A stretch of DNA of 5,281 nt from a virus. Taxonomy: Duplodnaviria; Heunggongvirae; Uroviricota; Caudoviricetes. The stretch lies in IMG/VR virus record IMGVR_UViG_2548876700_000007. One strand, 5' to 3'. Positions 1,388-1,419 of this stretch are shown here, piece after piece (position 1 is the first letter of the stretch; each line of letters starts with the position of its first letter). A program made the position numbers and the translations under genes. The notes beneath the pieces are model-generated. The model had not been told where the DNA came from, searched no databases, and worked only from the letters and a program-made list of their open reading frames with translations.

Positions 1388-1393
1388 TCATTA

Positions 1394-1415
1394 CCGCCCT
1401 TTCGGGCGGCCTCCT
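1394..1415 (-). promoter_or_regulatory. SD (AGGAGG) followed by 6-bp GC stem with GAAA tetraloop, between the 70-aa and 72-aa genes
   Basis: Seen on the - strand: AGGAGG (1415..1410), CCGCCC (1409..1404), GAAA (1403..1400), GGGCGG (1399..1394), then UAAUGAAUG with ATG at 1387. No U-run follows, so it is not a classic terminator. Any role in translation or RNA processing is inference. Confidence 0.3.
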
Positions 1416-1419
1416 GACA

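Follow-up and report, generated by a model that had tools for sequence, protein, structure and literature searches.

Translation initiation regions split by an RNA structure have been described for genes 38 and 25 of bacteriophage T4 (Nivinskas et al. 1999; Malys and Nivinskas 2009; as reviewed in PMC3014915). According to that review, the structure shortens the spacing between the Shine-Dalgarno (SD) sequence and the start codon from 22 nt to 5 nt in gene 38, and from 27 nt to 11 nt in gene 25, and mutations that destabilise it reduce initiation (PMC3014915). The T4-type phages also contain promoter-early stem-loops (PeSL), which consist of a sigma-70 promoter and a working terminator, and recombination between PeSL copies inserts, deletes or replaces the ORFs located between them (Arbiol et al. 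2010, PMC2839356). In the lambdoid phages, genome mosaicism has been explained by boundary (linker) sequences (Susskind and Botstein 1978; Clark et al. 2001; both as cited in PMC3233612). Here we describe a short prophage cassette that can be compared with each of these systems.

The window, i.e. the whole 5,281-nt stretch of DNA that was analysed (IMG/VR record IMGVR_UViG_2548876700_000007), is part of an Escherichia coli lambdoid prophage and is 100% identical to strain RM14723 over 601 bases (positions 1100-1700). The gene series on its minus strand comprises a cro-like HTH gene, a YdaT-family gene, an HTH/replication gene, a DUF977 gene, a truncated ead/Ea22-like gene, a gene for a 70-aa protein, a gene for a 72-aa DUF4014 protein, an 87-aa gene and a DUF551 gene. 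The cassette lies between the 70-aa gene and the DUF4014 gene (Table 1). All coordinates are window positions, and the cassette and the neighbouring genes are read on the minus strand.

Table 1. Features at and around the cassette
Feature	Position	Strand	Basis and remarks
Cassette of 26 nt, UC-AGGAGG-CCGCCC-GAAA-GGGCGG-UA	1392..1417	-	Repeated unit; BLAST overlap with ArgO145
Shine-Dalgarno sequence AGGAGG	1410..1415	-	Direct reading; 22 nt (1409-1388) from the A of ATG 1387
Hairpin: 5' arm CCGCCC 1409-1404, GAAA loop 1403-1400, 3' arm GGGCGG 1399-1394	1394..1409	-	Direct reading and folding
A/U-rich spacer UAAUGA	1388..1393	-	Direct reading; stops in two frames, no SD
72-aa DUF4014 gene, one hydrophobic segment, ATG 1387-1385	1169..1387	-	PGAP CDS WP_000256993.1, Pfam PF13198, phrog_1832
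Six-codon ORF MNGHII*, ATG 1391-1389, stop TAG 1373-1371	1371..1391	-	Direct reading; incidental
70-aa gene upstream, stop TAA 1422-1420	1420..1632	-	phrog_4659 (Escherichia/Shigella only); TAA 4 nt before the SD
Left half of the ~90-nt spacer that follows ead/Ea22-like genes	1633..1682	-	Comparison with the conserved spacer elsewhere
A7 run, DUF4014 codons 6-8	1364..1370	-	Run length polymorphic among related copies

The 22 nt that separate AGGAGG from AUG 1387 in the linear transcript are reduced to 6 nt once the 16-nt hairpin is removed. A possible extra G-U pair (G1410-U1393) would give a 7-bp stem, in which the last G of the SD is the outermost stem position. Direct reading revealed no further SD-like motif in the spacer between the hairpin and ATG 1387. 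This start is secure, because the protein matches its family profiles from the first residue and over the full length (PF13198, 1-72/72; phrog_1832, 1-72/72), PGAP gives the same start for the identical RefSeq locus, and an in-frame TGA (1390-1388) lies directly 5' of the ATG, so that no earlier start is possible; the DUF4014 homologues are, moreover, consistently 72 aa long. ATG 1391, separated from the stem by only 2 nt, is missing from most of the other cassette copies, which have spacers such as TAAGAA, TAATAA and TAGTTAA, and is therefore regarded as incidental. A preliminary description of this DNA had placed the only strong SD 22 nt upstream of the ATG, with a 6-bp GC stem and a GAAA loop in between, and our reading of the minus strand agrees with it at every coordinate, the pair G1410-U1393 being a possible addition. 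The two adjacent ATGs pointed out there are also present, the first encoding only MNGHII*, but this pair is not conserved among the copies of the cassette.

Folding of a 56-nt segment gave a structure of -19.7 kcal/mol (z = -3.56), and only 2 of 200 shuffled sequences were equally stable. The hairpin appears in both the minimum-energy and the centroid folds of this segment and of a 151-nt segment, its predicted pairing probability is approximately 1.0 in contexts of 91, 131 and 221 nt, and in isolation it reaches -12.4 kcal/mol as a 6-bp and -14.4 kcal/mol as a 7-bp stem. The SD is mostly single-stranded in the 91- and 131-nt contexts, and the duplex of AGGAGG with the 3' end of 16S rRNA has a calculated energy of -9.2 to -10.3 kcal/mol. 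A GGCGGU sequence in the 3' arm could pair weakly with the anti-SD (-5.4 kcal/mol), and it is buried within the stem. Folding had been proposed as a check of the arrangement, and the hairpin indeed forms in every modelled context, leaving approximately 6 nt between SD and AUG. It had also been suggested that unfolding would silence translation. This part was not borne out, since the hairpin remains folded in every modelled context and no conserved competing structure was found; nothing in these models supports a function of the cassette as a regulatory on/off switch.

The analogy with T4 gene 38, already drawn in the preliminary description, proved accurate in geometry when the leader sequences and folds were compared directly. 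The T4 gene 37-38 junction (UAA-GGAG-AGGGGC-UUCG-GCCCUU-CUAAAU-AUG) folds at -16.7 kcal/mol, and in both leaders an upstream stop codon is followed by an SD, a G+C stem whose tetraloop is extra-stable, an A/U stretch of 4-6 nt and the AUG. In both, the spacing is 22 nt in the linear and approximately 5-6 nt in the folded form, and the last bases of the SD overlap the base of the stem. The prophage site thus has the geometry of a split SD, namely an SD more than about 15 nt away from the start, a stable hairpin wholly between the two, a spacing of approximately 5-11 nt after folding, and no nearer SD. The loops differ (UUCG in T4, GAAA in the cassette), as does the setting: the T4 regions are single loci of a virulent phage, supported by mutations and by probing, whereas the cassette, known from sequence and folding, resides in temperate prophages, in thousands of copies and upstream of at least six unrelated genes.

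A 31-nt query found the cassette at 4813 places in 2635 of 5426 complete E. coli genomes, with up to nine copies per genome, mostly under no annotated feature. The 22-mer AGGAGGCCGCCCGAAAGGGCGG is present in more than 120 IMG/VR contigs; its exact sequence did not occur in 200 shuffles of the window and yet has thousands of copies in E. coli, so the cassette is beyond chance. The phage records that contain it (31) are limited to temperate and Stx phages of E. coli, and one of these phages, ArgO145, carries two copies. In a collection with one genome per species, the cassette was detected only in Shigella flexneri and in one contig of a metagenome-assembled genome that is a likely contaminant, beyond which a degenerate genome-wide scan yielded chance matches only; the Rac prophage of strain K-12 has no copy. 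Both protein families that flank the cassette share its restriction to Escherichia/Shigella. A generic search for an SD, a hairpin and a start codon in this order in approximately 1.5 Mb of related loci returned, besides this cassette, only an ordinary terminator and a single further case, and we therefore consider the cassette a single element that has spread, rather than a general habit of these phages.

Two unrelated sequences are found upstream of the cassette: the end of the 70-aa gene, as in the window, or a conserved spacer of approximately 90 nt that follows ead/Ea22-like genes. The genes downstream belong to at least six families (DUF4014 and those beginning with MRKFKI, M[AT]ELTKE, MQEIKE, M[EG]ITKE and MVTTGY). 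An ORF of at least 45 codons begins 6-11 nt past the stem in 96 of 116 unique contexts; in a further 17 the same ATG is kept and the ORF is broken or short, and the remaining three have a different junction. The SD is always on the coding strand in the copies examined, and a start codon follows in 113 of the 116 unique contexts. An SD-like 4-mer occurs in only 5 of the 96 spacers that precede a long ORF, and the distal AGGAGG is the only plausible SD in these contexts. In a DUF4014 variant starting with MKHYLE, a compensated frameshift retains the ATG 6 nt from the stem. In the second upstream context the nearest stop codon lies 57 nt before the SD, which means that termination-reinitiation cannot supply the ribosomes there; in the window, where the stop is only 4 nt before the SD, some translational coupling is possible. 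Open reading frames that seem to run through the hairpin in the second context ('...SGGRPKGR*') were dismissed as an artefact of the open-frame scan, as the annotated ead/Ea22-like gene stops 57 nt earlier.

In the window, the left half of the post-Ea22 spacer, which can also be delimited as 1633-1685 (minus strand), contains the sequence GGAGG (1644-1640), a conventional SD at a distance of 7 nt from the start codon of the 70-aa gene (ATG 1632). The full spacer normally ends in the cassette. The 70-aa gene therefore sits inside the spacer, between two boundary sequences that each bear an SD. In the full-length spacer of ArgO145 (locus L003, 2495-2585) two more hairpins are predicted, neither of which matches Rfam: one with an 8-9 bp A/U stem (UUAAAUUU...AAAUUUAA), and another, just upstream of the cassette, in which GGAGG(G) faces CCCUC, i.e. 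an orphan SD-like motif with an anti-SD-like motif.

Genes of the same families also occur without the cassette. The DUF4014 homologue of phage 933W (L0067) lacks the hairpin and has AAGGAG 6 nt before its GTG start, which is 1 nt past the upstream stop codon. In a sample retrieved with the DUF4014 protein, AAGGAG or GGGAG precedes the start of every cassette-less DUF4014 copy by 4-6 nt; M[AT]ELTKE genes that lack the cassette likewise possess a proximal conventional SD. Conversely, the same 70-aa gene in ArgO145 is followed by the SD and an identical hairpin and then, 7 nt on, by a different gene of 60 aa. The preliminary description had linked the hairpin to the small membrane-protein gene and had named homologues with a conventional SD and no hairpin as evidence to the contrary; such DUF4014 homologues exist in 933W and elsewhere, and as regards this gene the claim does not hold. 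These comparisons indicate that the hairpin belongs to a portable cassette and not to the DUF4014 gene.

Another linker, AAAGGAGAGTGAT-(A/G)TG, was observed before cassette-less DUF4014 genes (L457-L470 and similar loci; 13 nt before the starts). It follows at least four different upstream genes, all ending in ...KGE*, and is a motif of coding-sequence boundaries, unrelated to the cassette, that has a conventional SD together with a stop codon overlapping it.

Comparative analysis of the flanking sequences showed that the cassette lies at mosaic joints. Many partial BLAST matches of the window to the 5,426 complete E. coli genomes begin or end at the hairpin, and those to the phage records likewise break at the cassette. 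For two upstream and two downstream flanks all four combinations exist, with the cassette alone in common (identities of 0.23-0.38 between unrelated and 0.75-0.95 between related flanks). Particularly clear is the comparison with ArgO145: window positions 1978-1392 align with 923-1509 of the phage locus (97.4%) and positions 1417-1267 with 2556-2706 (84.8%), and the two alignments overlap on exactly the 26 nt of the cassette (window 1417-1392). Formally, as judged from this alignment, the window is the ArgO145 arrangement minus the 1.07 kb between its two cassettes. The alignments show the 22-26 nt cassette to be the sole homology between unrelated flanks and the crossover point of the mosaic joints. 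The preliminary description, which treated the site as specific to one gene, was thus right about its anatomy and missed the repeated element, with its 4813 places and four flank combinations.

Less regular joints were also noted. In L078 (1715-3202; also in L081) two convergent genes, encoding a multi-pass membrane protein of 184 aa and a protein of 299 aa, abut the last base of the stem, the insert of L078 beginning at the very next base; the two genes resemble a moron or defence pair that has been inserted. In L246 and L279 the joint is inside the cassette, approximately 45 nt upstream of the MRKFKI start, where unrelated sequence (...GGGGATCCCTCAGG-CCCGAAAGGGCGG) replaces the SD and half of the 5' arm, leaving a 4-bp stem and no SD.

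This organisation recalls the PeSL in that short conserved stem-loop cassettes are repeated in variable accessory-gene regions, and in that arrangements differ by the segment between two copies (as do the window and ArgO145). PeSL act, however, on transcription, whereas the cassette combines an SD with a hairpin and has no U-tract or promoter-like site; a scan of positions 1388-1420 found neither a promoter-like nor a terminator-like site. By its sequence, the cassette would be PeSL-like at the DNA level, yet not a PeSL. The likeness to the boundary sequences postulated for lambdoid phages is that of a short conserved sequence at gene boundaries that joins unrelated modules: the cassette is short, conserved and repeated, its flanks are unrelated, and genomes differ exactly between its copies. 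Since HK620, lambda, P22 and 933W are absent among the 31 phage records with the cassette, it is probably distinct from the linker of Clark et al. (2001), as far as the latter is presented in PMC3233612.

Variation of the stem was analysed among approximately 480 loci, gathered by protein, by exact pattern and by degenerate pattern. Not one compensatory pair change was found in 122 unique contexts, in which three positions of the 5' arm showed wobble-preserving C-to-U changes and six stem positions showed pair-breaking G-to-A or C-to-A changes. All of these variants are rare, and the disruptive ones are at least as frequent as those that preserve wobble pairs. The weakened natural variants, at -7 to -9 kcal/mol, have lost about half of the stability. 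Most variants of the cassette retain GGAGG or GGAG, and one loop variant, GAGA, is still of the GNRA type; in the L069 lineage both the SD and the stem have been lost, and GAGG has appeared 9 nt before the ATG. In nucleotide diversity, synonymous sites of the neighbouring 70-aa gene do not clearly exceed the cassette, and recent spread alone could therefore account for the near-invariance of the latter. The element is limited to Escherichia/Shigella, and a deep comparison that might reveal compensatory changes is therefore impossible; the check for covariation proposed in the preliminary description has accordingly yielded none. This distinguishes the cassette from T4 gene 25, whose structure is conserved among the T-even phages, and maintenance of the stem by selection on RNA structure must be considered unproven.

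Taking these data together, we propose that a portable intercistronic cassette has spread among the lambdoid and Stx prophages of E. coli and Shigella, in which a strong SD, an always-folded GNRA hairpin and 6-11 A/U-rich nt provide both bridged initiation and a crossover point, a reading to which we give an even chance. Hairpin-bridged initiation at AUG 1387 is well motivated, and we infer it from the geometry and context of the site. At the RNA level, the linear distance of 22 nt from AGGAGG to AUG 1387 would be shortened by the 16 nt looped out in the hairpin, so that the 30S subunit would meet the SD approximately 6 nt from the start codon, as in T4 genes 38 and 25. The locked hairpin would leave no room for initiation at AUG 1391, 2 nt away, and the whole would constitute a constitutive, self-contained and context-independent initiation region, not a switch. 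At the DNA level, recombination between copies may swap or delete the accessory genes between them, and a gene landing downstream would gain a ready-made ribosome-binding site. A/U-rich leaders can support initiation that does not depend on an SD, and this counts against the role assigned to the SD of the cassette.

Other explanations have to be weighed against this proposal. The hairpin could be a barrier or stabiliser at the 3' end of the upstream mRNA, or a weak attenuator, with an SD that is incidental or left over and a downstream gene translated by coupling or by SD-independent initiation. Such a role would suit the high stability of the GNRA-capped G+C hairpin and, in the window, its position immediately behind a stop codon; in L078 and L081 the hairpin is flanked by convergent genes and is not followed by a start codon, and there is no sign of selection linking the stem to translation. 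REP/BIME hairpins of E. coli are known as intercistronic mRNA stabilisers, and they too are G+C-rich palindromes present in many copies per genome between genes of one operon; they differ from the cassette, which bears no sequence resemblance to them, is restricted to prophages, is fused to an SD and lies 6-11 nt before a start codon. We nevertheless regard this explanation as rather unlikely: neither strand has a U-tract and the terminator scan passed over the hairpin, which in the second context is found 57-80 nt past the upstream stop and yet 6-11 nt before the next start, and its tight association is with a downstream start and a perfect SD, not with the end of the upstream gene. Moreover, the footprint of the 30S subunit covers the region 6 nt upstream of an AUG, and a stable hairpin located there cannot be neutral for initiation. 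A hairpin in this position might instead be inhibitory, keeping the SD too distant and damping the translation of accessory genes. A linear spacing of 22 nt is indeed non-functional, many accessory genes of prophages are toxic or needed in small amounts, and natural variants with a weakened stem exist. However, T4 genes 38 and 25 show enhancement with the same geometry, a damper would have no use for a perfect AGGAGG directly against the stem or for a spacer kept to 6-11 nt, and cassette-less copies of the same genes have good proximal SDs, which makes inhibition improbable.

The element may also have no special role in RNA and be solely a linker for homologous or microhomology-mediated recombination, or a relic copied along with the modules. 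The joints that map exactly to the edges of the cassette are in keeping with this, near-invariance combined with uncompensated stem changes fits hitch-hiking, and the hypothesis that mosaicism arises through boundary sequences is an established one (PMC3233612). A site serving recombination alone would, on the other hand, need neither a fixed orientation nor an SD on the coding strand nor the start codon that follows in 113 of 116 contexts, and downstream genes without any other SD would be left unaccounted for; a function confined to DNA is in our opinion unlikely. That the hairpin is the site of an RNA-binding protein, e.g. of a translational repressor or, in the manner of boxB, of an N-type antiterminator, seems hardly probable at all. 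The pentaloop of lambda boxB folds like a GNRA tetraloop, and a 6-bp G+C stem with such a loop resembles it; but no boxA-like sequence is present upstream, the loop has 4 nt and not 5, the cassettes lie deep in operons, often in several copies among accessory genes and not just downstream of pL/pR, and Rfam gave no match.

Several known elements were considered for the site and rejected. It is not an intrinsic terminator, as no U-tract follows the stem (UAAUGAAU) and the terminator scan was silent on both strands, nor a nut site (boxA plus boxB), for which boxA is lacking upstream, the loop is a tetraloop instead of a pentaloop, and the position is deep in the operon and multi-copy. Membership of the REP family was dismissed for want of sequence resemblance and of an Rfam match. 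An AgvB-like anti-sRNA was also dismissed: the upstream CACAAC represents His-Asn codons, and there is again no Rfam match. Rfam 15 was searched over the cassette in the window and in loci L001-L003 at E <= 1, with no match.

To our knowledge, hairpin-bridged SDs have been documented experimentally for only a few T4 genes. The recurrence of the same geometry upstream of six or more unrelated genes, in roughly half of the complete E. coli genomes, would show that it is a general and transferable solution. We tentatively suggest that such cassettes are mobile 'plug-and-play' units, which combine context-independent ribosome loading with homology for the shuffling of accessory genes between prophages, a view that may well prove too broad. 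If true, they would do for translation what the PeSL of T4-type phages do for transcription, and would give the linker model of phage mosaicism, long debated, a concrete case: a testable boundary sequence, defined at the sequence level, that persists as a linker because it doubles as the ribosome-binding site of the gene that arrives. Gene callers and ribosome-binding-site models that penalise a long distance between SD and start will mis-score the starts that follow the cassette, and the cassette itself is a candidate natural insulator part for synthetic operons. A literature search, for which Clark et al. (2001) was beyond reach, found neither the hairpin sequence nor 'DUF4014' in the papers that were searched; the hairpin-bridged mechanism as such is known, and its repeated, portable form at mosaic joints of temperate phages is new.

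Some additional observations concern the rest of the prophage. The A run near the start of the DUF4014 gene is A7 in the window, where the gene is in frame, and A6 in 18 of 24 comparable IMG/VR copies. In the A6 version a TAG directly before the run breaks the gene, and the 54-aa database proteins beginning with 'MFLILF...' are the resulting truncated calls; the polymorphism could reflect sequencing error, decay, or slippage (phase variation). Positions 24-893 (minus strand) contain a continuous ORF of 289 aa with a C-terminal DUF551 domain, for which PGAP annotates, on the same sequence, a truncated DUF551 pseudogene and a separate 112-aa DUF551 CDS. Beyond the cI-like repressor gene, an ORF of 163 aa (4715-5206, minus strand) encodes two CxxC pairs (zinc-ribbon-like) and holds a perfect 11-nt inverted repeat, TTTGTCCAAAA/TTTTGGACAAA, at 4879-4902. 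Finally, the sequence just past the left end of the window (L001, 4473-4640) strongly matches the sok antitoxin RNA (RF01794, 116.7 bits, E = 1.2e-26), pointing to a hok/sok-type toxin-antitoxin locus in the same prophage, beside an IS481 transposase.
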